Assembly: GCA_046761065.1 (NCBI GenBank)
Contig: JBHIFL010000012.1
Coordinates: 1 to 64,000, forward strand
Origin: Candidatus Heimdallarchaeota archaeon
GTDB taxonomy: Archaea; Asgardarchaeota; Wukongarchaeia; Wukongarchaeales; JBHIFL01
Length of the DNA stretch: 64,000 nucleotides
Direction of reading: 5' to 3'
Position numbers and translations under genes: made by a program. Positions 5,590 through 19,913 of this stretch are shown here, piece by piece (the stretch's first letter is position 1; every line of letters begins with the position of its first letter). A model generated the notes under the pieces. It searched no databases and was not told the DNA's origin. It worked only from the letters and a program-made list of their open reading frames with translations.

Positions 5590-5802
5590 GCTCAAAAGGA
5601 CAAGGATAATCCAATCCTAGTCCTGATTTTCTTTCCACTCATTTTCTCTTGTGAGTACTTGCACTATGAAGGTGCAATTTTTTCATTATTTGAATTTGGA
5701 TTGAGTTCTTAATTCATTTTATAAGTAGTATTTGTTTTATTATTTTATCTGGAATTATTCAGGATATCATCATTTACCTTCCCACCCCGGACATGGTTTC
5801 AT

Positions 5803-6480
5803 TCAGTGTTTCACCACCCGGAGCATAACCTGCCACTCCAGATTCTCCTTGTGGGGGTCAATTAGCACATACCGCCCCTTCGTGCCGTGCCGCGGGTCCC
5901 CCAGCGCGGAACTGGCCCCGCACACCTGGGCGTTTGGATCGCAGACTGGAATCCCGAAGTGGCCCGTGATCAGCCAGTCTTCCCACCGGAATCCACGCAG
6001 CAACGGATGGGGCTTCTTGACAAGTTGTCTTTTCAGAAGGACTAAAGCACGAGTATTTCGAATCCCCCCGTTCAATTCGATTGCCTTTTCCAACCCTAAC
6101 CCATTGCCATGAGCGAGATACACATCATTCGCACCACACCAAAGCCGCCCACTGTCTCGCACCGTGAACCCTGCCCTCCATAACCGCCGATCGATGCTGG
6201 CATCATGGTTCCCCCGGAGCAACACGGTCTTCTGCAGTAATCCCATTGCCTCTAACTCGTCTCGCACTTCAAAGAAGCACCGCCACGATTCTTCCTCTCC
6301 CTGTGAGGGGTACCGCAGCTCAATGGTGTCACCTAGCAGGAAGAGGGCCCCGAGCACCTCCCGGATCCGCCAGAGTTCCTCCACGTAGATCGGATAATGG
6401 GATCGGTCGTCTCCGATATGGAGATCAGCCATGGCCGCAATTTTCAACTCCTCCTCAAATCGTATCGGGTCACTGGTCAT
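5803..6480 (-). CDS. calcineurin-like metallophosphoesterase
   Basis: DLH, GD, GNHD, HG and GHFG motifs; ATG 6480 follows a GAGGAGG RBS just after the helicase stop. Confidence 0.85.
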   Translation of the reverse strand: MTSDPIRFEEELKIAAMADLHIGDDRSHYPIYVEELWRIREVLGALFLLGDTIELRYPSQGEEESWRCFFEVRDELEAMGLLQKTVLLRGNHDASIDRRLWRAGFTVRDSGRLWCGANDVYLAHGNGLGLEKAIELNGGIRNTRALVLLKRQLVKKPHPLLRGFRWEDWLITGHFGIPVCDPNAQVCGASSALGDPRHGTKGRYVLIDPHKENLEWQVMLRVVKH

Positions 6481-6484
6481 GTCT

Positions 6485-8773
6485 TCATCCTCCTCGTTGT
6501 CTAAAAAACGCTCGGAGCCGCTCATGGGCTCTTTTGGAATAACTGACGGGGAAGGTGTTCACGTCGACGCATCCTTCGCAATATCTCCGACAGGGACAGC
6601 CCCTCACCCGCTCCCGGACCACCGCTAAGATCTCTTCCGCATGGTCAAAAAGCTGCTTGGCACCCCCCATGGGCGCCCCACGATCTAACATCGCCAATTG
6701 CCACCTGTTCCCCTTGCCGCGTAGCAGCTCCACTTCCAGTCCGGACGGATCAAGACCCAACCGGTCTTGCGCCGCCTTCATGACCACCGCTCCCAGATGG
6801 GTGAACTCGTCTCTGCCAAACCACGCTCCCTTGAACCCCATGACAAGTCCTTCCGTCCAATATCGCAAGACGCCCTCCCCTGCCGGGATCCGCTGCTGCA
6901 CCACTACCCGACCACTCCCCAGTTCCCGGATCCGTCGCCAGGTCGGCTGCAAGGTGACCTCGACTTCGCCGAACCACGCGACCACCCGGTCCCCAACCCC
7001 TCGTGCGGTCCCACGCCCTGTCCTTACCTCTCTATCCACATAATTCTCACTGTACCATGCCTTCTCTGCAGGTTCCACTACAATCGTATCCTCTTGAATC
7101 TCTACCACCCGCCAAACCTCCCCTCTTAGGACCAAATAATCGCCTTTCCGCCCCTGCCGAGCCGCTTTCCACATATCGAGGTAACCTATCACCTGATTAG
7201 CCCGCGTGACCACCGCCAGCTCCACTTGAGCCGTACGAAACCGCTGAGCGAAGTACTCAGGGGCACTCCGATCTAGATGGATCTGGAACTGGTGCCGCCT
7301 TTTCCGGACCTTCCCCTCCACCAGCAGCTCCGTCAGAACCTCCTCCACCTTGGCTTCCAGATACTCCGCAGCGGTGTGCGGGAACACCCACCTCAGGTCT
7401 CGCTCGGTGAGCCCGAGGGCTCCACACAACAACAGGGCCATCTTCAAAATCTTCTCGCTGAAAAACTCATACCGAACTGGGTCGGGCTGGAGGGTCCGGA
7501 CCAGGGCTTGTAACTGGCGGGGATTGGCTAGGTAGTAGGTGTCTGGCTGCCGCCGCGGCGCTAAGAACCAGAAGACGTGCCCCTCCCGTTCGGGGTCCCG
7601 CGCCACTCGCATGACCACTTGGTGCACTCCCCGTTTCCCCCCACTTGGATACCCGATGATCACCACCAGATCCAGTTCCCCGAAGTTGACTCCCGCCTCC
7701 ACCGCCCGGGTCACCAACAGCCCCCGCAACTCTCCCCTCCGGAACTGTTTGACCGTTTCCCGGGTCTCCGCCCGTGTCAGCCCGCCATGCACGAGGCCAA
7801 AGTTCCGCCGCGTCAGCTCCTCTACGATCGCCACCCGCTCCAAGAGGAACTTGTTGTCCGCATAGATCACCACACGCGCCGTGGGGTAGATCTCCTCATC
7901 TAAGAGTTTGCGCAGAAACCGGTCAAATGTCGTCACCTCCCCTCCCTCCTTGGCCCTGAGTCCCGTCCCCTGACTGTAGACGAAGACTTGGATCCTTCCA
8001 TGCTTTGCTGGACCAGTAACTACCCGCGCCTCGACCAGTGCTTCCCGCGCGAGTTCCTCCGCGTTGGGGATCGTTGCACTGTTGAACACAAATCGTACCT
8101 CCCGCCCTCGCTCCCGGTTGTACCGCTTGAGGATCCGGTATACCGCCAAGAGATACGCTAGGCTGTATGCTGAGTAGTAGTCGAGCTCATCGCAGATCAC
8201 CATCCATGGCGAGACCATCGCCTCCCCCCAACCCGTCTCGCCTCGTAAAAGCGCCCAAAACAGCGTATCCTTGTACATGTCCACTGTCATGGGGATGATG
8301 TCCACGTTCCCCTTCGCCACCTGCTCCCGCACCCGCCGCCGCTCCTCCCGACTCATGTCACTGGTATACCGTGCTATCCCGATCTGACCCCCTGTCAATT
8401 CGATATTGTGCTCCCGTAATCGTTCCTCTTGATCGAACAACAGCGCATTATTCGGAAATAAGTAGATCACCGGCCGCCGCACCTCCCCCTCCTCCCCTTC
8501 TTCGCCCTGTTTTTGCCTTAGGACTCGTTCAAACGCCAAGAAAACGGTCGCCTCCGTTTTCCCAGCTCCGGTCCCCGCGACATGTAAGATATCATACCGC
8601 TTCACCTTTTCGACAAAGACTGCTTGATTCTCTAGCACCCTCCATCCATATTTCTCCAGAATCTTCGGCCCTAAGTATTGGAGCACTGCTCCCCACGCCA
8701 CCTCAGTCAACTCACCCACTGTTCGCTCATGAACTGCGTACGCCAGGGGCTTATCCAGCACCAGGCCTTTCAC
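6485..8773 (-). CDS. SF2 helicase with C-terminal DUF1998-like Cys4 domain (Hrq1/MrfA/SftH-like)
   Basis: Q motif, AGTGAGKT, DELD, SAT, TRAVEAGVN, degenerate motif VI QVVMRVAR and C-terminal CPCRRYCEGC. The GTG start overlaps the upstream TGA. Confidence 0.85.
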   Translation of the reverse strand: MKGLVLDKPLAYAVHERTVGELTEVAWGAVLQYLGPKILEKYGWRVLENQAVFVEKVKRYDILHVAGTGAGKTEATVFLAFERVLRQKQGEEGEEGEVRRPVIYLFPNNALLFDQEERLREHNIELTGGQIGIARYTSDMSREERRRVREQVAKGNVDIIPMTVDMYKDTLFWALLRGETGWGEAMVSPWMVICDELDYYSAYSLAYLLAVYRILKRYNRERGREVRFVFNSATIPNAEELAREALVEARVVTGPAKHGRIQVFVYSQGTGLRAKEGGEVTTFDRFLRKLLDEEIYPTARVVIYADNKFLLERVAIVEELTRRNFGLVHGGLTRAETRETVKQFRRGELRGLLVTRAVEAGVNFGELDLVVIIGYPSGGKRGVHQVVMRVARDPEREGHVFWFLAPRRQPDTYYLANPRQLQALVRTLQPDPVRYEFFSEKILKMALLLCGALGLTERDLRWVFPHTAAEYLEAKVEEVLTELLVEGKVRKRRHQFQIHLDRSAPEYFAQRFRTAQVELAVVTRANQVIGYLDMWKAARQGRKGDYLVLRGEVWRVVEIQEDTIVVEPAEKAWYSENYVDREVRTGRGTARGVGDRVVAWFGEVEVTLQPTWRRIRELGSGRVVVQQRIPAGEGVLRYWTEGLVMGFKGAWFGRDEFTHLGAVVMKAAQDRLGLDPSGLEVELLRGKGNRWQLAMLDRGAPMGGAKQLFDHAEEILAVVRERVRGCPCRRYCEGCVDVNTFPVSYSKRAHERLRAFFRQRGG

Positions 8774-11700
8774 TTACTCTCCCTCCTCAACATCGCCTCG
8801 ACGCCTCCTAACACACTTCCCAGCTCTCCTACTATCCCTTTCGGCACACCCGCCACCTCCTTCGCATACTCGACTAAGATTCGCCGCATCCGCTCTAAAA
8901 CCCCCGCCGCTTCGTGTGCTGATTCCTTCCTCAGGATTACAAAGGGGCTATACTGGTCCGGCTCCTGCTCCGCCATCGCCTCGATCAGTCCTTTAATGCT
9001 TTGCACGTGAGCCGCCTCCAACTCCCACAAACCCCGTCGCTTCTCCCCTTCCCAGACTACTTCCTGCTTCAAGAGATCCTCCACCAGTTGGTAGAGCTTC
9101 ACACTCCCCTGGGGGGTTGGAGCATACCTCGGGAACCCCCTTGTGGACTGATACCGCTCAAAGTCCTCTGGCAGCAACCACCCATCCAAGAACCCCACAC
9201 AAATCTCCTCCCAGAGGGTCGGCAATAGCGGCTCTCGCAAATCCAACGCCGCCGCCAACTCGGGGCGATCCTTGGGCCGGTGACTGAACAGCTCCACACT
9301 TTTATACCCTATCCCTACCTCTCCCCCATGGGCTCTTACCAGATTGGTCAGGACTTTCCCCGCCCGGTTCAACGCCGCGTCCAACATCGTCTTCGCCCCG
9401 GCCGCTCTTGTTGGGGTGGGGTAGATCCGATCCCCTCTTCGCCCAAACGTCCGCCCGATCCCTCCCACCACGATCCCTGTCCCTGGCCACCGCTCGCTCA
9501 ACGCCTCCCGAATCAGCCGATGCACCCCCTCACTCACCCGCCCCTCTAATGCCATGAACGCTAACCGATCAAACCGTCCCCGCTTGAGAAACCGGAGAAT
9601 TTTCACCACCTGCTCTTCGACTCGTTCGGTACGCTCCGCAGCTCTTCCGATTCGCCCGCATAAGACTGCGGTGGCCAACACCTGGTTAATTATCAGACCC
9701 CAGAAATACTTCCGCCGAAATTCTTCATACCACGGCTTCGCCTTTAACAGAGCTCGCCAAAACCCTACCGACGGCTGCTCATACTTCGGTGGCTTGATGT
9801 CCTTATAGGAATGGGGGATCCCTCGCGCCTCCAGCTCGTTTGCCAGTTCCTTCCTCCCATGCACTGTGACATACACATTCTCTATCTCATACGTAGCCGT
9901 GTGCTTCGGATACTTCACAAACAATTCGTTCCCCTCAATCCAGGCATCACATTCGTACGTAATCAACACAAACTCCCGCCCCGTTGTGGGCCACTCCGGC
10001 AGCTCCGGCTCATAGCCACAGTATATCTTGACCAGCCGCTTGATCTCCTCCTCAAAATCCACTTCCATCCGGGCAGTCCCATCGATCCTCCCCTTGAACT
10101 TCGCCCCGCATTCCTCGCACACCACCACGCGGCCCACCTCCGGTCGTTCTCGGAGTATCCCCTCGCAGACCTCCCGCAGACACCTCCACCCGTGCCTGAT
10201 GCCCTCCTCTCCCACCCACACGGCCTCCTGAAACGCCGTTAATGGAATCGTGGCCGCTTCCACCCGGGGGACGAACCACCCACACGCTTCCCGATTCTTC
10301 ACGTACCTCCCTTGCTCTGCTCGCCTTCTCATGAAGCGGTCCGTCGGGACTGCGCTCGGTCGCTCCTCTGCTATCTTATAAAAGGCTGCACAACCCCAGT
10401 CCTGGGCCGCGTAGAGCCCACACTCCCCACACCGCCTCCCCTCTCCCATTCCCCCTACCAGACACCCCGCCTCCGGCCACCCGCCGGGGTCAATCGCCAG
10501 CCCCAGTAACTCCACTTCCTCAACCTCGAGGACACACCCTTCTTCTCCCTCCAAACGGTAGTTACACCCCATACAACACTCGTCCTGACCCGCTCTCTCC
10601 TGTAACCCCCCGCTCTTCACTCGACACACAATCACCAACAGGGGCGCATATGGCCCGACTCGTACCTTCTGGCAGTGGATGGCCCGCAGCACCAGTAACG
10701 CTCCCCGTGGTAGCTCGCCAAATTGCTTGACCAGCGCTCGCACTCGCTTCGGGACAAAATATTTCATGAGGAGATAATGCACGCTCCGCTCAGGGATCCC
10801 CAGCTCCCTCGCTAAGTCCTGATACCACACCCGCCGCTGCGCTTCGACCTGCCCGGGATTCCCCCTCACGGGCGCGGTAATCCGCTTATTCAACCCTTTG
10901 ATAAGCTTATCCACCGCCTTCTGGAATTGAACCCGCCCAGGCAATAACACACCCCGTCTTTTTGGCGGCTCCGGCTCTTCTATTATCCCTCTTTTTGCTG
11001 ACGCTTCTCTACATGCCCGCGTCCCCTTTTTCGGCCGCCCCACCCCCTCCTTCAACACGGGCTTCCGCCTTGCCTTCTGCCCCGCTCGCACCATTTTGCC
11101 CGGGGACCCCACTTTTTTGGGCCGAACCCTGCCTTTTGCATCCCGCAACCGGGCTCCCGCCGCGCGTCCCCCGCTTCCAACAAACCTTCCCACCAGCTCC
11201 GCACGTTCCTTGTCTGTCAGCCGCTTCCCACCATGCTCTTCAAAGACCTGCAGACACGCTTTGGCGGAACTCGGCATCGCCGCTAACCGAGCCCCAAAGG
11301 GTGAACAGGAGAGCTTCCCCGCTTTATACACGCACCCCGTCTCCTTGGATCGGTACTTCTTTCGTCGAATACATCTCGCATCCCGGAGCTCCCGCAACGC
11401 CGCGTTCGCTCCTTTTACAAAATATTTCCAGGGCTCCGTATAGGGCGCCGCCCTGTACTCCCGGATCAATTCGGTGAGGATGGGATAGTTGCTCTCCACT
11501 TGTTCCTGGAGCTCTCGCTTCGTATTATATACCCGAGCCAGCTGCGGGATCAACTGTAGATAATACCCGGGAAACGTTTCCTTCAATCCACGCCGAAACT
11601 CCTTCTTCGTCCGTGCCCGCCGGTAGAACTCTAAGACATAATCGTGGAGCTCCTCAAAATACCACTTCGTGCATGTCGGCAGCCCTAACGCCCCTTGCTT

Positions 11701-12678
11701 CAACCAGTACTCCTTCTTCCGCCCACAGTTCACCAACAAGACGTGACCTCCTTCCCCCACCTCCTGCGCAATCCGTCCTAGCTCCAACGGGTCCCGAAAG
11801 TCTTTGCAGTCGACCACCACTACTTCTTCAACCTTTCCCACCGCCTCCCCAAACCTCCGCACCCGCCCCGCCTCATCCCTCCGAATCCATTTCGAATACA
11901 CGCAGAATCTCTTGCCCTCTCGCTCCAATCGCCTCCACACCCATGACAGCCTCATATCCATCCGCTTAATAGTTGCCATCCCCGTACCCCGCCGCCCTAC
12001 CATCTTGACCTCAAACCCCCGATCCTCCAACCACCACTGGAATAGTTCCGGATTCCCATGTCGGATCAAACATACCACTCGCGGACACCGCCGCCCAAGC
12101 TTGGCCAGCTCCATGATGCAATTGGCGTATAGCCGCCATTGTTGGCTCATTAGCCCTTCGAGAAACCCCACGAAAATCACCCGCTTCACTCCCAAGCCCC
12201 TTCTTCCTACCTTCACTAACCGGTTGTAAAACGCCTTTGCTCCAAATACTAACAGCTTCGTTCGTTCCTCCCCCTCTTTGTCTTTGTCCCCCGCCAGTTC
12301 TTCCTCCAAGACATCCTTCGGCCCCATCTCCTTAAGCTCAAATTCCGCTGGTTCTAGGTTCAGTTCAAGCACTTCTATAAGCCGCGCCTTGGCGTAGGCC
12401 GAACAGACGATCATATATGCCCTCCTTCTTCGCCGCCGCGTCCTTCCTCCTTCCCCTCGTGTTTTACCCCGCGGTCCCGGCCACCTTGCCCGCGCCCGCG
12501 CTCGTCGCTCCCTTATCTTGTCTTTTTCGGCATACATGGATAGGAGCCCTGTCAACGCCGCGTCTGACCTCTGCTGTTTTGGCGAACAGACCACCAAACA
12601 CCGGTGATCCTCCAACAGCTCCATCCCGAGCTCGTGCAGTTCCTGCCTTCCTAACCGCTCCAAACATTCAAGCAGCAT
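8770..12678 (-). CDS. cas1: giant Cas1 fusion protein: inactivated Ski2-like helicase / winged helix / HTH / Cys clusters / Cas1
   Basis: The C-terminal ~8900-9980 follows the Cas1 pattern: beta domain FVLITYECDAWIEGNELFVK...ARGIP, then MALEG, FGRR, LDAALN, FSH, LDLREP, EDF, YSPF. The N-terminus keeps a Hel308-like layout (GNPELFQWWL, ETF, CSPFG) without Walker motifs. Confidence 0.75.
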   Translation of the reverse strand: MLLECLERLGRQELHELGMELLEDHRCLVVCSPKQQRSDAALTGLLSMYAEKDKIRERRARARARWPGPRGKTRGEGGRTRRRRRRAYMIVCSAYAKARLIEVLELNLEPAEFELKEMGPKDVLEEELAGDKDKEGEERTKLLVFGAKAFYNRLVKVGRRGLGVKRVIFVGFLEGLMSQQWRLYANCIMELAKLGRRCPRVVCLIRHGNPELFQWWLEDRGFEVKMVGRRGTGMATIKRMDMRLSWVWRRLEREGKRFCVYSKWIRRDEAGRVRRFGEAVGKVEEVVVVDCKDFRDPLELGRIAQEVGEGGHVLLVNCGRKKEYWLKQGALGLPTCTKWYFEELHDYVLEFYRRARTKKEFRRGLKETFPGYYLQLIPQLARVYNTKRELQEQVESNYPILTELIREYRAAPYTEPWKYFVKGANAALRELRDARCIRRKKYRSKETGCVYKAGKLSCSPFGARLAAMPSSAKACLQVFEEHGGKRLTDKERAELVGRFVGSGGRAAGARLRDAKGRVRPKKVGSPGKMVRAGQKARRKPVLKEGVGRPKKGTRACREASAKRGIIEEPEPPKRRGVLLPGRVQFQKAVDKLIKGLNKRITAPVRGNPGQVEAQRRVWYQDLARELGIPERSVHYLLMKYFVPKRVRALVKQFGELPRGALLVLRAIHCQKVRVGPYAPLLVIVCRVKSGGLQERAGQDECCMGCNYRLEGEEGCVLEVEEVELLGLAIDPGGWPEAGCLVGGMGEGRRCGECGLYAAQDWGCAAFYKIAEERPSAVPTDRFMRRRAEQGRYVKNREACGWFVPRVEAATIPLTAFQEAVWVGEEGIRHGWRCLREVCEGILRERPEVGRVVVCEECGAKFKGRIDGTARMEVDFEEEIKRLVKIYCGYEPELPEWPTTGREFVLITYECDAWIEGNELFVKYPKHTATYEIENVYVTVHGRKELANELEARGIPHSYKDIKPPKYEQPSVGFWRALLKAKPWYEEFRRKYFWGLIINQVLATAVLCGRIGRAAERTERVEEQVVKILRFLKRGRFDRLAFMALEGRVSEGVHRLIREALSERWPGTGIVVGGIGRTFGRRGDRIYPTPTRAAGAKTMLDAALNRAGKVLTNLVRAHGGEVGIGYKSVELFSHRPKDRPELAAALDLREPLLPTLWEEICVGFLDGWLLPEDFERYQSTRGFPRYAPTPQGSVKLYQLVEDLLKQEVVWEGEKRRGLWELEAAHVQSIKGLIEAMAEQEPDQYSPFVILRKESAHEAAGVLERMRRILVEYAKEVAGVPKGIVGELGSVLGGVEAMLRRESK

Positions 12679-13003
12679 GTGATTACCTAATATATTTGGG
12701 AAATCGCTTTTTAAGGTTCAACAGTGTTTTAGAAAATCTTACCATATGTTTTTCACTGTAGAAATATTCCTTGTTAGTCTTTGAAAATACAAAATCCCCC
12801 ATGAGTATCCTCCTTCCATGGAAAAAAGTAAATTGTTGCTATCTACATTTGATATGGCCTGTATTATTCTGGCAATTCTCCAGACACCTACCCTGATTTG
12901 GTTCAATGGGGTTACAGAGTCAATGTTAACACTTTCACCCAGAATGGATCTCTTTTTACTCACCCTTGGGTGGTTTTTATATTACCAAGCCTACAACCCT
13001 CTG

Positions 13004-13444
13004 ATGACTCCCTCCTATCAAACTCCTCAAGAGGCCGCAGTTGCCCGACTCTTGGATTCTTTACCCCTCCGCTACCGCTACCGATGGGTTCTCCGTAATA
13101 GGCCGTACGCAAATTACGTGTTCGATTTCTTTATTCAGGGCGGCCTCATCCTCGAGTGCAGCGCCACTAAAAATGCCTCCTCAAAGGCAGTTAATTGGCT
13201 CTATCAGAAAGCCGGTCTTGTTAATCGCCGCTTCTGGGTGGTGAAACGCCGCTTTAACCCCCCTCCCATTACTGTTTTCCTTTTTGAAGCGCCCCGCGCC
13301 CACCCAAACCGTATTCACAACGCCATCCAAACCATGACCAATTTCGGCGAGCTGGCGTCAACAGACCGAATCTTTGTCCACTTCTCTGAATTAGAGACTT
13401 TCCTTACAAAATGGAGCTCACGGGAAGATATCAACCCCATTTGA
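13004..13444 (+). CDS. PD-(D/E)xK / DUF559-like nuclease, paralog 1
   Basis: TPQE...YVFDFFIQGGLILEC. ATG 13004 lies ~25 nt after a TTTTTATAT TATA-like box, so it is preferred over the ORF-track start at 12818. Confidence 0.6.
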   Translation: MTPSYQTPQEAAVARLLDSLPLRYRYRWVLRNRPYANYVFDFFIQGGLILECSATKNASSKAVNWLYQKAGLVNRRFWVVKRRFNPPPITVFLFEAPRAHPNRIHNAIQTMTNFGELASTDRIFVHFSELETFLTKWSSREDINPI

Positions 13445-13731
13445 AACTGTAGCATGAGATAAAGCTCGCTTGTAATCGCATCATCGTGTTTATCCCAAAT
13501 TTCTTCTCCTTTCTTCTTTTTTCCTTCAAATATACTTGATCCCTTCTCTTGTAGCTTTGTTGGCGTTTCCTTCTTCTAGTCCTTCACTTGGATAATAAGC
13601 CCAAAATGCCCTTCTAGATCAAAATAGAACTTGCTAGAAGGCTTCAAAGACTTATATATATCTATGGAACTAGTATGATGTGATACCATAGGAATCCATT
13701 GGAATCCTCCTTGAAAACAAAGGTGTGGTGC

Positions 13732-14376
13732 ATGCAAACTAAGAAATTATCCAATGACGACTCGGTAAAAGCGGAAAAGGGGATCTTACGTCACACAATT
13801 CTACACCAACCCTCCACCGCTCAAGAATGGACGATTGTCCAACTCTTGCAGGAGCTAGACCTGAAATTCATGCATCCTTGGTTTGTTTATATCCAAAATC
13901 GCCGCTATCTCTTCGATTTTCTCATCGTGCCAGATGTGGCTGATTTCTCGTCCACTGACATCACGGTGCGAGTCCGTGAATCTGACTTGGAAACGACCGG
14001 GCCTGGATGTGATCAGAAGCGGTTGACAAGATTCCGGGATGACCTCCACTCAGATACTACACCTTATAAGGTGGAAAATGCTTATGTTATCGAGTGCGGC
14101 GTTTCGCAAAGTTGTCCCTCCAAGGCACGGGCCTGGCTCCGTTCTAAGGCTGCCCTCATTGACCTACGATTTCGCGCTCTCAAACTCTTCTTTCACTCAT
14201 CTCCTTTCACCTTGATGCTGCTCGAAGGCCCATATTTCTCTCAAAACGACTTTAATTCGAACCTAGAACCTCTATACTTTACTGATAAGCTGGTAACTTC
14301 CATAGATCAGCTGCAAGATTTCCTAAGAGGATTGAAGGCACGGTTGAGAGGATCTTCTCAGACGGGAGGTGTCTGA
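13732..14376 (+). CDS. PD-(D/E)xK / DUF559-like nuclease, paralog 2, with ~49-aa in-frame insertion
   Basis: TAQE...YLFDFLI...YVIEC...SKARAWLRSKA aligns with paralog 1 (SKAVNWLYQKA). ATG 13732 follows AGGTG. Confidence 0.6.
   Translation: MQTKKLSNDDSVKAEKGILRHTILHQPSTAQEWTIVQLLQELDLKFMHPWFVYIQNRRYLFDFLIVPDVADFSSTDITVRVRESDLETTGPGCDQKRLTRFRDDLHSDTTPYKVENAYVIECGVSQSCPSKARAWLRSKAALIDLRFRALKLFFHSSPFTLMLLEGPYFSQNDFNSNLEPLYFTDKLVTSIDQLQDFLRGLKARLRGSSQTGGV
13941..14084 (+). repeat. structured ~140-nt repeat, copy A (inside nuclease gene)
   Basis: Core 13990-14028 matches 16147-16185 at 37/39 positions; the flanking hairpins are conserved in position. Confidence 0.85.
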
Positions 14377-14378
14377 AT

Positions 14379-15227
14379 TTGGGGAAGGAAGATGTTCAAT
14401 GCATAAAAAAAATAAAAAAAGTAGTTTCCGTGGTTGCTTGGACACCCATTGCTAAGCCTTTGAACGGAACGCTCCCACGCTCGAAGAACTCCACAATGCT
14501 ACGACTGGCTCCAGTGGAGTACACCTACAAGCATGGAAAAGAAGTCAAGTCCGGTCGGGTGGAGACCTATCTTATCAAAGGGCTGCGCGGCGCTCTGCGG
14601 CACTCAGCTATGAGCCTCTTACGGGAGGCTGGCCTGGAAGTATGCCATTCTAGTGATAAAGAGGCAACCCAAGAAGGTAAAGCCCTGATCCCCGAGGGGT
14701 TTCACCCATTGGGTGCATGCGAGAAGGACCCCTGCATCCTGAATCGTATTTTTGGATGGATGCGCCATCAATCCCGGATTGCTGTGTATGCTGATCCCAT
14801 CGGGTGTCCGAAACACAAGACCTTTGCTGCAGATGTCCCCCTCCAACCCGTCCAAATCGCCACCGAGAACCGGGTCGCTCTGACCTTTGACCACGAAGCA
14901 ATTCAGGATTTTGGTGAACGTTATTTCTCCGGAGAATTCCGGTTTCACATCGATGTCTCCGCTTTGGAGCCGGAGGAACTTGGGCTAGTCATTCAATCTG
15001 CTATGACCCTCCACCGCCTTGGTCGGGGCTTTAATGCTGGCTATGGCCATATTAAGATCCAACAACTTACCCTTGAACAAGTGACAACTGAGCGCCGACT
15101 CCAGTGGGATGGAAATGGAAGCTTTCGTGTCGAAGAAACGGAAAGTCGTGAACCACTCCACCAAGAAGTCTTAGACGCGTTGCAAGCTTTTCAACTGTAC
15201 CTTAACGCACAAACTGGGGAGTCTTAA
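14379..15227 (+). CDS. cas7: Cas7-family RAMP (Csm3/Csf2-like)
   Basis: KGLRGALRH, Cys-rich C...CEKDPCILNRIFG, thumb TENRVAL, ELGLVI and G-rich loop LGRGFNAGYGHIKI. TTG start after GGAGGTG. Confidence 0.85.
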   Translation: MGKEDVQCIKKIKKVVSVVAWTPIAKPLNGTLPRSKNSTMLRLAPVEYTYKHGKEVKSGRVETYLIKGLRGALRHSAMSLLREAGLEVCHSSDKEATQEGKALIPEGFHPLGACEKDPCILNRIFGWMRHQSRIAVYADPIGCPKHKTFAADVPLQPVQIATENRVALTFDHEAIQDFGERYFSGEFRFHIDVSALEPEELGLVIQSAMTLHRLGRGFNAGYGHIKIQQLTLEQVTTERRLQWDGNGSFRVEETESREPLHQEVLDALQAFQLYLNAQTGES

Positions 15228-16136
15228 ATGTATTGTGTGTTAATTGGACATACATCAACTCCTATTGTCAAACCCAAGGCGGAATTTTGTTGGAAGGGGA
15301 CCCTTGTCCGAATTAGTCACACCCTCATCTCCACCCCTGACCATCTCTCCACCATTTACACTCGACCTCCCTTGCGCCGCTATTATGGGAAACTCACCGT
15401 GGGGAAACCTTCCTTCCTGTACGTCTATAGGTGTTACTATGGATATGTCTACGTGATCTTTCCTGTCCGAACACCAAGAGCAGGCGCTCGGAAACTGAAA
15501 TACCTCCTCCAGCATGATCAAATGGGGCGTTTTGCTCAGGAAGGCATGGGCCGCGTCCGATGGCTCGGCGGCTTCTTTACTGCTACACTCCCCCCCAAAC
15601 CACCTCGACCCCCCAAACTTCGAATCAGAAAAGGCATGCCCCCAGATCTGCCTGAGTCCATCAAAAAACTCCTCACACTCGCGATTCTCCATGATCTCGT
15701 TCATTGTAACCGGCACCAAAGCAAACTGATGTCTGAAGTCCAGATCCAAGATGAAGAGCTCCGTCGGCTTGCCAAATCTCATCACGCCCTCACAATGAAT
15801 CCACTTTTACTTACCTTGCAAAAATATGATCGAATAGCGGCTAGAATTACCCGTAAGCATTGGTCTCCCATTAAAACCCGTTACTCGTGGCGGGCGAATA
15901 AAAAAGTCGATGTTCAGCATTTAGTACGACAAATTGAGGCGCATCAAGACAATATCTTAACTCTGTATAAAATCATAAAGGCTTCCAAGGAGTTGGATCT
16001 GCTGAATGAGAGTTTAGAGTATGGCCACAGTTCCCTCCGCCAACATCTTCTCATTATCGCTAATTTAATCGTGACAGATTGGTTGAAGGAGCGTTTAACT
16101 CTTTCATCAGCTGGAATTACGGTTGAAACGCCGTGA
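15228..16136 (+). CDS. Cas5-like RAMP fused to circularly permuted HD nuclease
   Basis: G-rich loop MGRFAQEGMGRVRW, a Pro-rich linker, then LHD...HH...YD and a C-terminal SLRQHLL. ATG directly follows the cas7 stop. Confidence 0.7.
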   Translation: MYCVLIGHTSTPIVKPKAEFCWKGTLVRISHTLISTPDHLSTIYTRPPLRRYYGKLTVGKPSFLYVYRCYYGYVYVIFPVRTPRAGARKLKYLLQHDQMGRFAQEGMGRVRWLGGFFTATLPPKPPRPPKLRIRKGMPPDLPESIKKLLTLAILHDLVHCNRHQSKLMSEVQIQDEELRRLAKSHHALTMNPLLLTLQKYDRIAARITRKHWSPIKTRYSWRANKKVDVQHLVRQIEAHQDNILTLYKIIKASKELDLLNESLEYGHSSLRQHLLIIANLIVTDWLKERLTLSSAGITVETP

Positions 16137-16240
16137 ATTCGACGGAGAAACGACCGGCCCTGGATGTGATCAGAAGTGGTTGACAGGGTTTCAGGAAGGA
16201 CATCCCCGCGAATACAGCCGTGTAAGCGGTTGAAAACTTA
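16098..16240 (+). repeat. structured ~140-nt repeat, copy B (3' end of cas5-HD and intergenic)
   Basis: Direct repeat of 13941-14084 at an offset of 2157 bp; three hairpins, two with GNRA-like loop sequences. Confidence 0.85.
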
Positions 16241-16639
16241 TTAAGAGTAATATAGGTCATGCATTCCCGAAACATGGCCAAACCATGTCTTTTTTTCCAG
16301 TTCTTCAGCGAGGACTGTCTCCCATCGGTCTTTATAGGTGTGTTTTAAGTGCGCAAGCCGCGAAATCTCATCGAGGATGATTTCGAGGAGGTTGGGCAGT
16401 AACATGTACTCCTCTTCGTCTAGCTCCTCACTCTTGAGGAACTCATCGATGGCGAGCCCAACGAGCACCTGCGGGTCGGAGTAGTCGGTCTGGCGAAGGA
16501 TTTCGTAGCTATAGAAGGCGATTTGGGACATGAGATGCCCATAAGGGTATAACTCTTCAAAAAACCCGACATAATTCCCAATAAGGTCTTCAATCCATTT
16601 ATTGCGGGGGTATCCCTTCGGAGGCATTTTGTCTTTCAA
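16241..16639 (-). CDS. acidic helical hypothetical protein
   Basis: 132-aa ORF with protein-like composition, convergent with cas5-HD; no motif recognised. Confidence 0.6.
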   Translation of the reverse strand: MKDKMPPKGYPRNKWIEDLIGNYVGFFEELYPYGHLMSQIAFYSYEILRQTDYSDPQVLVGLAIDEFLKSEELDEEEYMLLPNLLEIILDEISRLAHLKHTYKDRWETVLAEELEKKTWFGHVSGMHDLYYS

Positions 16640-17088
16640 TCCAGTTACCCCGGTCCGGTCTTAACTTGGGAATATAACCGAGGGAGTGTTCCTAATTGTT
16701 CAATACTTAATAACCAACAGATTCCCCTGTCGCTAGTAGCGCAGTATTCCTTTCTTAAATATGTTTTTGTTCATTACATCAGACTCCACGAAGATCTAAT
16801 TCCAGATAAGTTGATGAGAGTCTAGAGGGACCCTCCTCCAAGGAACGCCCGACGAAGAGGAGGTTTAAAGGTGTAATCCCAGAAAGTAAGGTGTCATCCA
16901 GCTCTCCTATAATGGATAGGAATGGGTTAGATTTAGATCAATCCATCTATATCAATATAGCAGCGATTGAAAAGTCCAGTGCCGTTTTCCAAGAGTTTAA
17001 GGATTGCAACTAAATGACATGGGAATGCAAGAGAAACCCGAGATTGTGGAGACAGGATGCAACTTAGTAAGACGTTAGAGGTACAGGA

Positions 17089-19668
17089 ATGATGCGAAAC
17101 CAAGGGACGTTGGTGCTCACCGAACATCGCAAACCAATGACTGTTCGCGTTTATTCGGTTCGCGTGGCGAATTTAAAGCGAGGGATAAGCCCCACGGAAG
17201 TGGGACGTGTCGAGTTTCACCTCCTTCGGGATAGATATCTTCGACCGACGACCTTCCACGTTGCAGCGCGGGGAAAGACCCAGCGGGTCTCGCCAGACAG
17301 GTTTGTCCGACTCCTGAAAGAAGCCACGAACATTCTCCTCAGCAACGGCATTCCAAGAGACTTAAGGGCACGAATCAGCGCGATGCTTAAGGAGTTCGCA
17401 GTTCCCGCGAAAATTGGAGTCATCCAATTATGTGAGTTCTGCTTGATCAAGGACAAACTAACGTGGATGACGGAACGGGGATATCAGGCATTGGGGCGGG
17501 AGGTGTGTGAGCGTTGTGCACTCAACGAGGTGGAACGCGAACTAAACCGCCTGCAGATCCCAATGGAAGCCGCAATACGCCGCATCGTGCGCCGTCTAAT
17601 GCGAAAAACACGAGATGTCGATATGATTATGCAGAACCTGCAACCCGGAGCAACACGCCCCATTCACCCGGAATTGACGTTATTCAACACTCGGAGTGCC
17701 TTGGACTTCAGAAAGCAACTTTCGTTAGAAAGCTTAACCCTTCCGCCTCCTGTTTTAGAGGCCATAAAACAAGAAAAGATCTCGAACTTGCTACCTATAC
17801 AGGTTCTCGCAATCCAGAATGGGTTGTTGGAAGGAAAAAACCTGCTTGTCCTTTCGGAGACGTCAAGTGGAAAGACGTTGGTAGCAGAACTGGCGGGGAT
17901 CCCCAAGGTTTGGCAGACCAGGAAAAAAATGGTCTATCTAAGTCCCCTTGTAGCGTTAGCGAACCAAAAGAGAGGGGATTTTGAGAAGCGGTATGGGCAG
18001 CTAGGAATCAAGGTAGCCCTTCGCGTAGGAATTTCGCGGATAGATATTGGCGAAGCACCACTTTTAATGGATGACACCGATATTTCGGGAGCGCAGCTTG
18101 TAATTGGGACATATGAGGGTATAGATTTCCTATTGCGAAAGGAGGGGCGGGCGGCATTAGAAGAGGTAGGAACCATTGTGGTGGATGAAGTCCAAATGCT
18201 TGCGGAGGAGGAGCGAGGCCCGGAACTCGATGGGCTCATCGCCCGAATGCGAACGCTATACCCCCAGGCTCAGATCGTCGCGCTATCGGCAACGGTCGGG
18301 AATCCAACACAATTAGCCCAGGAGCTTGGATTACAGCTCGTACACTTGGAAGGACGACCTGTGCCGCTAGAAGAACACCTCCTTGTGATCATGGATGACG
18401 AGGATAAACGCGTAAGAATTGTGGAACTCGTCAAGCGTGAATGGATGACCCGGAGTAGCTATGGCTTTCAAGGCCAAACGTTGATTTTTACGAACGCGCG
18501 AAGGAAAACTCACCAGATTGCGGCGAAGTTGCGAAAAGCGGGGCTAAAAGCCGCGGCATACCATGCGGGGTTCAGTTATGGACGACGAACACTTGTGGAA
18601 AATCGCTTTACGGCAGGGAAACTCCAAGCAGTAGTCGCCACGTACGCCCTTGGAGCAGGAATCGACTTCCCAGCGAGTTTAGTTATCTTTGAAAACCTCT
18701 GTATGGGAAACCGTTATCTAACCGTCTCCGAATTCACGCAGATGACCGGACGTGCGGGACGACTTGGGAAACACGATCGAGGGCGAGCCTTTCTTATAGC
18801 CTCCCCTGGACAAGGGTGTGCGGGATATCACGATTTAACCGAGACGACGGCGGCCTTAGAACTTCTGAATGGGAAAGTGGAATCCGTCTATCCGGAATAT
18901 GATGAAGAAGTCAGCGCAGAGCAATTTTTAGCGTGTTTAGCAGTTACAGGAACATTAACAGAAGCAGAACACGCGTATTCACAGCTTATAGGGAGGTCCA
19001 TAACAAGTAAGGAGGCGATTTCCAGATTAGAGAAGGAAGGGTTCATCACGTCGCAAAAGGGCGAATTCCGGATTACCCAATTCGGGAAGGCGTGTTCGGT
19101 GTCATTTTTCTCGCTCGCAACAGCCACCAAGGTCCGAAACGCGTTAGCACAGGGAATCGCCCCCCTAGATCTAGCCCTTGAGCTGCAGTCGCTCAAAAAT
19201 GTCTACATTGCCAATAACGTGCATTCTATACTCGAACGGACCTTTGGGACACGCTTTTCCACGCGTATCTTTACAGGTTCGATCTTGGATGTCATGGACG
19301 CCTCCCTCGGAGGGATGCACAAGCGATTACCCCCATGGGTGTTGAACCTGTTCAAAAAGTGGGCGCAGGCGTTCTTTGATTGTGATTGCGCCGAGAGGCC
19401 GTACTGTACCTGCGCACAGAAGAAACTGGGGAAGTATCTGGTAACTCTCCGGCTGCAAGGAACCACGCCTCGAAGAATGACCAATATCTTGCAGCGGGAC
19501 TACTCATTTTTTGTATATGAAGGCGACATTTTCGACTGGCTTGATGGCTTAGTTCATGTCCTTGATGGAATATCTCGAGTAGCGCAAGCGCTTGAACATC
19601 CCAAATGTGCAAAGGCCGCGGTAGAACAAGCCCGGTTTATTGAGAACCCGACTAACAAAGTGAATTGA
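17089..19668 (+). CDS. archaeal Ski2-like helicase (ASH-Ski2 type)
   Basis: TSSGKT, DEVQ, LSAT and QMTGRAGR; N-terminal CxxC pairs and C-terminal CDC...CTC. Confidence 0.9.
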   Translation: MMRNQGTLVLTEHRKPMTVRVYSVRVANLKRGISPTEVGRVEFHLLRDRYLRPTTFHVAARGKTQRVSPDRFVRLLKEATNILLSNGIPRDLRARISAMLKEFAVPAKIGVIQLCEFCLIKDKLTWMTERGYQALGREVCERCALNEVERELNRLQIPMEAAIRRIVRRLMRKTRDVDMIMQNLQPGATRPIHPELTLFNTRSALDFRKQLSLESLTLPPPVLEAIKQEKISNLLPIQVLAIQNGLLEGKNLLVLSETSSGKTLVAELAGIPKVWQTRKKMVYLSPLVALANQKRGDFEKRYGQLGIKVALRVGISRIDIGEAPLLMDDTDISGAQLVIGTYEGIDFLLRKEGRAALEEVGTIVVDEVQMLAEEERGPELDGLIARMRTLYPQAQIVALSATVGNPTQLAQELGLQLVHLEGRPVPLEEHLLVIMDDEDKRVRIVELVKREWMTRSSYGFQGQTLIFTNARRKTHQIAAKLRKAGLKAAAYHAGFSYGRRTLVENRFTAGKLQAVVATYALGAGIDFPASLVIFENLCMGNRYLTVSEFTQMTGRAGRLGKHDRGRAFLIASPGQGCAGYHDLTETTAALELLNGKVESVYPEYDEEVSAEQFLACLAVTGTLTEAEHAYSQLIGRSITSKEAISRLEKEGFITSQKGEFRITQFGKACSVSFFSLATATKVRNALAQGIAPLDLALELQSLKNVYIANNVHSILERTFGTRFSTRIFTGSILDVMDASLGGMHKRLPPWVLNLFKKWAQAFFDCDCAERPYCTCAQKKLGKYLVTLRLQGTTPRRMTNILQRDYSFFVYEGDIFDWLDGLVHVLDGISRVAQALEHPKCAKAAVEQARFIENPTNKVN

Positions 19669-19913
19669 ATCGATTGTAAGCGTAATCAGTTTTGATGCCA
19701 CTACAGATCTTCGACAAGATTTAGTTCATCAATTGAAAGTGTTGAACAACCCAGTCTCCCTGGTTTAGGTCTGGCGAGGAAGCCATTCAGGCGGTACTGT
19801 CGATTATAAGTAGAAGGCGATTACACGAGTCTTATGGGAAATAGTTAGATTTAAGCATCGATAGGTTAATCCAAGCAAATCTTCATTCAAGTGAAAAAAA
19901 TGATTTACCTAGG

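Follow-up and report, generated by a model that had tools for sequence, protein, structure and literature searches.

The island and its genes

The first 64 kb of contig JBHIFL010000012.1 (contig C12) in the Candidatus Heimdallarchaeota archaeon assembly GCA_046761065.1 (4.42 Mb in 234 contigs, GC content 0.42, 91 % complete), hereafter called the window, contain a 10.4-kb island at positions 5799-16246 with seven genes in two divergent blocks. The blocks and all seven genes had been proposed at these places in a first-pass annotation made from the sequence, and they were confirmed by open reading frame (ORF) calls. The gene set is that of ARAMP (Asgard RAMP), as catalogued by Makarova et al. 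(2020), and is therefore not a new system; the statement in the first-pass annotation that Asgard Cas1 with Cas5/Cas7 had been reported in that publication is thus correct. The locus is an intact ARAMP member which behaves as inserted, exchangeable DNA. New in relation to the published ARAMP summaries are a structured element overlapping the end of the cas5-HD gene, the coincidence of this element with the boundary of the insertion, the insertion of a further copy (copy A) into a nuclease gene, a different class of the element (class 2) dispersed in the genome, and a swap of modules between islands. The features are the following.

5803..6525, minus strand: calcineurin-like metallophosphoesterase, last gene of the Cas1 operon (240 aa; Pfam Metallophos, 27.4 bits)
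6485..8773, minus strand: MrfA/YprA-like DEAD-box helicase with a C-terminal MZB (DUF1998) zinc domain (762 aa; Pfam DEAD, Helicase_C and MZB)
8770..12678, minus strand: Cas1 fusion (1302 aa), the predicted C-terminal Cas1 domain being encoded by ~8773-9981
12818..13444, plus strand: nuclease 1, PD-(D/E)xK-like (structural neighbours in ESM Atlas)
13699..14376, plus strand: nuclease 2, interrupted in frame by element copy A between the Asp and Glu motifs
13924..14092, plus strand: element copy A, class 1, comprising the final ~66 nt of a cas5-HD coding region and the putative RNA element
14379..15227, plus strand: Cas7-like RAMP (282 aa; Pfam RAMPs above cut-off)
15228..16136, plus strand: putative Cas5-like RAMP fused to an HD nuclease domain (family alignment motifs)
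16068..16245, plus strand: element copy B, class 1, overlapping the 22 final codons of cas5-HD and its stop
5745..5757, no strand: left arm of a 13-bp inverted repeat, not an island end
16797..16809, no strand: right arm of the 13-bp inverted repeat, in host DNA and not an island end

Within the minus-strand block, the ends of the 1302-aa and 762-aa ORFs overlap by 4 nt and those of the 762-aa and 240-aa ORFs by 41 nt. In the plus-strand block, the gap between nuclease 2 and Cas7 is 2 nt and that between Cas7 and Cas5-HD 0 nt.

Comparison with relatives placed the limits of the island at 5799 on the left and at 16245/16247 on the right. The GC content was 0.57-0.59 across the minus-strand block, compared with 0.42 for the genome, and the composition was foreign in two genomes. 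At the ends given in the first-pass annotation, 5745 and 16809, stand the two arms of the 13-bp inverted repeat, which does not bound the island. As a pair of element ends this repeat was rejected: it is an exact match, yet it lies outside the limits found by comparison. The left arm is outside the block shared with the relative's island and absent from all 55 loci compared, and the right arm lies inside 16247-19677, which aligns at 83.5 % with a relative lacking the island, so that the repeat is best read as a chance occurrence. That contig C30 and the first 5.8 kb of the window belong to one large mobile element was also considered and rejected, the genes there being ordinary transporters and enzymes with host-like GC content.

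Proteins of the Cas1 module

Residues 900-1302 of the 1302-aa protein (403 aa) gave an AlphaFold model with pLDDT 89.9 and pTM 0.83 from a 23-sequence alignment, and the best 50 Foldseek matches of this model in the PDB were all Cas1 or casposase chains (E down to 6e-9, ~375 columns). An earlier model from three sequences (pLDDT 57) was too poor for use. Since the later model is confident and its Foldseek matches are exclusively Cas1 or casposase, the Cas1 identity of the C-terminal domain is confirmed at the level of the predicted fold. The residues E146, H234, D247 and E250 (domain numbering) are invariant in the 23 aligned relatives, and the giant Cas1 fusion proposed in the first-pass annotation is thus borne out by its modelled fold and by retention of the catalytic Glu, His and Asp/Glu. 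The family is very small and diverged: an exhaustive profile search recovered only 26 relatives among 1.84 billion representatives, one of 23 relatives matched Pfam Cas_Cas1 (E 0.018), and the Cas1 region, used as a single sequence or as a 3-sequence profile, gave nothing in Pfam, NCBIfam, PADLOC or PDB sequence searches. The N-terminal 880 residues had no match in Pfam, NCBIfam or PADLOC. They contain several Cys clusters and an Arg/Lys-rich linker, and roughly a dozen relatives longer than 1000 aa keep the length of this part.

The other two genes of this block, the DUF1998 helicase and the phosphoesterase, were identified by their Pfam domains as had been proposed. The 762-aa helicase matches TIGR03817 at 1.2e-28; its matches to Cas3 are limited to the generic helicase core and it has no HD domain. 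The metallophosphoesterase has a 45 % identical paralogue on contig C36 and an orthologue in L053, a close relative from a European Nucleotide Archive assembly.

Proteins of the effector module

The 282-aa Cas7 protein scored 23.1 bits against Pfam RAMPs (cut-off 22.1), in agreement with the earlier assignment, and also matched models of the Csm3 type (PADLOC Csm3, 1.6e-7; TIGR03986, 2e-7). The protein encoded by 15228-16136 can be assigned weakly to Cas5-HD from its family alignment, in which a G-rich loop and H-D, HH and D motifs are conserved. These motifs lend weak support to the earlier naming of this gene as Cas5-HD; the library matches for both domains were weak or sub-threshold, with Pfam HD sub-threshold in 8 of 16 relatives and scattered weak PADLOC matches of single members to Cas10, type IV Cas5 and III-D Cas5. 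A Cas5-HD profile gave nothing significant against the PDB, the sole hint being a type IV Cas6 chain (E 0.33), and a feature search of ESM Atlas returned unnamed clusters only.

Two nucleases had been proposed upstream of cas7 and both are present; they are paralogous to each other. Nuclease 1 has no Pfam match, and its structural neighbours in ESM Atlas are DpnII, PDDEXK_11, Mrr and NERD at TM-scores of 0.44-0.50, which we take as a lead towards a PD-(D/E)xK-like fold. The description of nuclease 2 has to be corrected, as the gene is interrupted by copy A.

Genes and arrays looked for in the island and the genome

Scans of the island ORFs with Pfam, NCBIfam and PADLOC detected no cas2, cas6, cas3 HD, large subunit (Cas10/Csf1) or PolB, no TnsB, TnsC or TniQ, and no TnpB, IscB or TnpA domains. 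Neither TRF nor a repeat finder detected a CRISPR array in the window. The absences noted in the first-pass annotation (cas2, cas6, cas3, large subunit, array and casposon PolB) were thus confirmed. Elsewhere in the 91 % complete assembly no array or cas6 that could supply the proteins was found either: ordinary Cas1 (PF01867) and Cas6 (PF01881) gave no match in the whole assembly, and a k-mer scan of the 4.4 Mb for CRISPR arrays gave two protein-coding repeats only.

The host is Asgard, as its GMP synthase (GuaA) is 92 % identical to a protein of an NCBI-named Heimdallarchaeota metagenome-assembled genome and the relatives of the flanking helicase carry Asgard lineage names. Besides one close relative, the best matches (~80 %) of guaA on contig C25 (3129-4661) are named Bathyarchaeia.

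The class 1 element in the window

A 140-nt repeat had been noted in the first-pass annotation. It is real and belongs to a structured element which is tied to cas5-HD across Asgard lineages. The two copies in the window, A and B, are 83 % identical across a 66-nt core and alignable over ~150-170 nt. Copy B reaches from 68 nt upstream of the cas5-HD stop to 110 nt downstream of it, its 3' end consisting of a hairpin followed by GAAAAC and then TTATTAAG. It ends at 16245, 2 nt before the start (16247) of homology with L056, a relative which lacks the island. Copy A is a net 147-nt in-frame insertion, the corresponding region measuring 174 nt in nuclease 2 of the window and 27 nt in L053, where the orthologous nuclease has 158 aa and no copy A. 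Two further class 1 copies, on contigs C15 and C30, both follow the remains of a cas5-HD 3' end.

At the start of copy B (window 16077-16137), the assembly of one source run splits into several contigs of 41-50 nt with unequal depth and shows a T/G difference at 16107. Either a bubble in the assembly graph caused by the repeat or a variant in the population may account for this break.

Paralogous loci and the class 2 element

The genome of the window also contains a complete paralogous ARAMP locus on contig C36, with protein identities of 30-49 %, and partial loci on contigs C25, C4, C15, C21 and C32. The cas5-HD genes of the paralogous loci are followed by a 181-nt element, class 2, which is different from class 1 and equally placed, so that every cas5-HD gene or fragment in this genome is followed by an element. 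Rfam contained no family matching the window or six paralogous loci. The class 2 covariance model does not find the copies in the window, and the two classes are therefore linked by their position and by a core pattern recognised by eye only.

The class 2 element was found in 44 copies by nhmmer and 40 by the covariance model, many of them degenerate. In its fold 86 % of cells are paired, compared with 36-47 % when the partners are slid; 22 pairs are changed on both sides, and none of 500 shuffles reached the observed score. Many of the pairs are G-U, on the sense strand only. The 3' GGAGC can pair with either the 5' end or an internal GCUUUC.

The dispersed class 2 copies share a common 3' end, and their similarity to the cas7-cas5-HD-element unit extends in the 5' direction for ~90 nt to 2.1 kb, many copies keeping 3' fragments of cas5-HD. 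About ten copies end exactly at the start codon of a host gene (offset 0), with AAGGAG supplying the ribosome-binding site. Genes tagged in this way include those for an aminotransferase, the fumarase beta subunit, a PhoU-like protein, a YchF-type GTPase, MptE, methenyl-H4MPT cyclohydrolase and GMP synthase. For the copy preceding guaA, conservation in a relative is 93-99 %, compared with 89 % for the gene.

Some of the class 2 surroundings have features of their own. On contig C115 (1-10459), a stretch of 9 kb holds six copies, all in one orientation, with small genes between them, among which are those for two PIN-type toxins, a JAB-like protein and a HEAT-repeat protein, a layout resembling a chromosomal integron cassette array. 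At the complete locus on contig C36, a nuclease, a SAP domain and Cas7 are fused in one 555-aa protein, and the class 2 element is followed by an XPD/DinG-like helicase (15463-17559; DEAD_2, Helicase_C_2), which echoes the DinG of type IV-A.

Elements behind cas5-HD in other Asgard lineages

An initial contig scan with Cas5-HD gave no locus, and a profile search of whole genomes was used instead. It found cas5-HD in 39 of 400 genomes of the phylum, mostly from five families and many as 3' fragments. Downstream of cas5-HD in families other than that of the window, two further conserved element types, alpha and beta, were recognised. In the alpha element 17 of the 25 predicted pairs are compensatory (8 sequences). 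Within family f21, the alpha model matched 15 of 22 genomes, all 15 of which have cas5-HD, while the five genomes without cas5-HD gave no match; kinship among these genomes precludes a statistical test. Most of the f21 matches abut a cas5-HD gene or its 3' fragment.

In a 12-kb search with the alpha model, copies B and A ranked first and third. The core of copy B (16158-16188) scored 16.5 bits (E 0.028) and that of copy A (14004-14028) was weak (E 1). The core common to the window copies and alpha comprises a stem, (A/G)AUG(A/U)RA, an inner hairpin, U(U/G)GA and a closing stem. Judged by its letters, this core recalls a box C/D or K-turn motif, of the sort which L7Ae binds. In three genomes of one genus (G103, G096 and G098), cas5-HD and alpha lie directly upstream of an L7Ae gene which has a conserved leader of its own.

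The Cas5-HD protein of the window has 42-43 % identity with the proteins of alpha-type loci, compared with 29-32 % with the class 2 paralogues of its own genome. Protein and element of the window are thus both nearer to alpha than to class 2, which indicates that Cas5-HD and the element diverge together. In genome G010, from a different family, a single class 2 element (158 bits) is found behind a broken cas5-HD fragment, suggesting transfer of the module between families.

Comparison of the island with those of relatives

The Cas1 fusion of L053 is 85 % identical to that of the window, and the block from the phosphoesterase to nuclease 1 (window 5799-13730) is colinear and 83 % identical between the two. 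The island of L053 carries Cas7, Cas5-HD and an element of the class 2 type and lies among different flanking genes, its element extending precisely as far as the ATG of the host gene that follows. Between its two PD-(D/E)xK-like genes there is also an RRXRR-HNH nuclease gene (L053 7105-8628) which is not in the window, and accessory nucleases have therefore been gained or lost within islands that are 83 % identical. L056, in turn, has no island beside the orthologue of the flanking helicase. The locus is accordingly not fixed and syntenic across relatives, since one close relative lacks the island at this site and another has it elsewhere. A second meeting of an element end with an insertion boundary is found on contig C30, where a class 1 remnant ends 10 nt before homology with L056 resumes; the intergenic region with the remnant measures 1.47 kb, compared with 278 nt.

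In the contigs of the source runs the island was spanned in one piece; no joined form without the island or without copy A was seen in them, nor any circular or excised form of the island.

Interpretation of the locus

The reading we favour, to which we give an even chance, is that the island is a mobile form of ARAMP whose RAMP pair uses the RNA of the element, perhaps with a tail from the host flank as a guide. The island consists of two parts. The Cas1 module comprises helicase-sized N-terminal domains (~880 residues) fused to Cas1, the MrfA-like helicase and the phosphoesterase; the effector module comprises the two PD-(D/E)xK-like nucleases, Cas7, Cas5-HD and the folded element of ~150-180 nt, which starts inside the end of cas5-HD and forms the right terminus of the island. 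The element would be co-transcribed with cas5-HD, and we infer that Cas5-HD and Cas7 could assemble on it in a crRNA-like manner. Since the junction with host DNA is also where the element stops, read-through past it would add a tail spelling the host flank, and with such a tail the complex could recognise that site or its unoccupied form. The Cas1 fusion, together with the helicase and the phosphoesterase, might then integrate or retain the element. The fullest form of this proposal, a self-mobilising ARAMP with a Cas1-family integrase under the direction of a RAMP complex carrying a long non-CRISPR scaffold RNA with a 3' tail copied from the flank, is possible but doubtful.

Several observations weigh against the favoured reading. 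The left end, 5799, was set solely against another island, and a mangrove relative has the same junction. Synteny also breaks at the insertion site, beyond which the genes are ordinary, so that a rearrangement instead of a clean insertion is possible, and no target-site duplication was seen. For the 40-60 nt which follow copies A and B, no match was found either at the island ends or in the rest of the window. As regards the element itself, the class 1 fold was built on four copies, and the link between class 1 and alpha consists of the 31-nt core with the E values given above for the two copies. Folding energies were no better than those of shuffled sequences in either class (z -1.2 for copy A, 0.1 for copy B and -0.15 for a class 2 copy), and covariation does not separate RNA from folded single-stranded DNA. 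Finally, about ten copies give housekeeping genes their ribosome-binding sites, and a leader role consequently fits as well as a guide role.

The leader role is the basis of a different explanation, according to which the locus is a fixed ARAMP defence system and the element a cis-acting leader or intercistronic RNA with a ribosome-binding site, possibly a switch between two pairings, which has spread as a non-autonomous repeat and gives the RAMP proteins no guide. This we consider rather unlikely. It would account for the class 2 copies at offset 0 from housekeeping start codons, with AAGGAG as Shine-Dalgarno sequence, for the two alternative pairings of the 3' GGAGC and for the conservation, in a relative, of the copy before guaA, and it agrees with the published reading, in review summaries, of ARAMP as a defence system with nucleases (PMC8730458, PMC12669027). 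It would not lead one to expect, however, that the element overlaps the cas5-HD stop in every lineage, that it diverges together with Cas5-HD and travels with 3' fragments of its gene, or that it coincides with insertion boundaries beside the 3' ends of convergent genes.

If the folded form were single-stranded DNA, the element could be a recombination site similar to attC, where the Cas1 fusion inserts or exchanges cassettes and the effector module is one such cassette. A copy in the same orientation on either side of cas7-cas5-HD in both full loci, the 83 % identical Cas1 block which bears either class of effector, the six one-orientation copies in 9 kb of contig C115 between small genes including PIN toxins, the junctions exactly at start codons and a structure more conserved than the sequence would all suit such a site. 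The explanation is nevertheless very unlikely in our judgement: the many G-U pairs would be weak G-T pairs in DNA, the tagged genes are for the most part single housekeeping genes with ordinary surroundings, the source-run contigs showed no circular or excised form, and Cas1 enzymes, both Cas1-Cas2 and casposases, integrate duplex ends rather than folded hairpins. We see no better than an outside chance that the region is ordinary chromosomal DNA at a rearrangement breakpoint, its repeats being functionless today and left over from the decay of repeated local duplications. The far side of the relative's junction does map to another contig with ordinary genes, many element copies are degenerate, and copy A disrupts a nuclease gene; decay, on the other hand, would hardly leave seven genes intact, with catalytic motifs kept at 20-40 % identity, or elements with compensatory changes, and would explain neither the foreign composition in two genomes nor the boundaries which twice, independently, meet the ends of elements.

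ARAMP and HRAMP have been called enigmatic because a Cas1 integrase stands beside an effector with nothing to guide it. The element is a concrete candidate for the missing RNA: it diverges in step with the protein, and its end meets that of the insertion. Were the fullest form of the proposal true, ARAMP would be the counterpart, based on Cas1, of both TnpB/omegaRNA homing and CRISPR-associated transposons, and a living example of how guide RNA, effector and Cas1 could have been linked prior to arrays. If the use of the flank as guide held, RNA-guided DNA mobility would have a third independent route, via Cas1, with a bearing on the origin of CRISPR adaptation and programmable insertion. If it fails, the locus is one more intact member of the family catalogued in 2020.

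Comparison with known systems

The likeness to CRISPR-associated transposons which was drawn in the first-pass annotation holds for the logic and, since Tn7-type genes are not present, for the logic only. The Tn7-like systems I-F3, I-B and V-K also combine a nuclease-poor effector with a mobile element bearing its integrase, but the island is without TnsA/B/C, TniQ, array and Tn7 ends, and its candidate integrase is Cas1. Casposons are alike in having a Cas1-family integrase on moving DNA, whereas the island has neither PolB nor terminal inverted repeats and its Cas1 is far from the casposases. The placement of the element is similar to that of omegaRNA in IS200/IS605 TnpB and IscB systems, where the RNA gene shares its sequence with the 3' end of the effector gene and terminates at the element boundary, so that the flank can be the guide. 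Those systems use RuvC nucleases and TnpA, to which the proteins of the island, a RAMP complex and Cas1, are unrelated, and the guide role proposed here is hypothetical. With integron attC sites the element shares repeated structured sites of ~100-180 nt in one orientation between genes, junctions at start codons and a conservation of structure exceeding that of sequence; the island differs in lacking a tyrosine recombinase and in its G-U-rich pairing.

Among CRISPR effectors, the RAMP signal of the island is of the Csm3 or Csf2 type and a putative HD nuclease is present, as in types III and IV with their backbones of Csm3/Cmr4 (Cas7), Csm4/Cmr3 or Csf3 (Cas5) and the Cas10 HD, but Cas10 palm, small subunit, Cas6 and array are lacking and the putative HD domain sits on the Cas5-like protein. 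HRAMP (Makarova et al. 2019, FEMS Microbiol Lett 366:fnz079), as summarised in PMC8730458, is likewise an array-less Cas5/Cas7 pair with extra nucleases. It is haloarchaeal and without Cas1, unlike the island, and was set apart from it here by description rather than by sequence. A full-text literature search for ARAMP or HRAMP found no experimental study. To our knowledge, these two are the main CRISPR derivatives without a known RNA or mechanism.

ARAMP itself (Makarova, Wolf, Shmakov, Liu, Li, Koonin 2020, CRISPR J 3:156) was described computationally and is summarised in reviews (PMC8730458, PMC12669027) as array-less and type III-derived, with nucleases and mostly with a distinct Cas1. 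The island agrees with ARAMP in its Asgard host, the absence of an array, the diverged type III-like Cas7, the putative diverged Cas5 and the very diverged Cas1. ARAMP is associated with PD-(D/E)xK and HNH nucleases, which have their counterparts in the PD-(D/E)xK-like genes of the island and the RRXRR-HNH gene of L053. The ARAMP summaries in these two reviews mention no RNA component, ends or mobility. Here, by contrast, a structured element is found on the end of cas5-HD, bounding the insertion and dispersed in the genome, and the predicted Cas1 domain follows ~880 further residues and is coupled to an MrfA-like helicase and a phosphoesterase.

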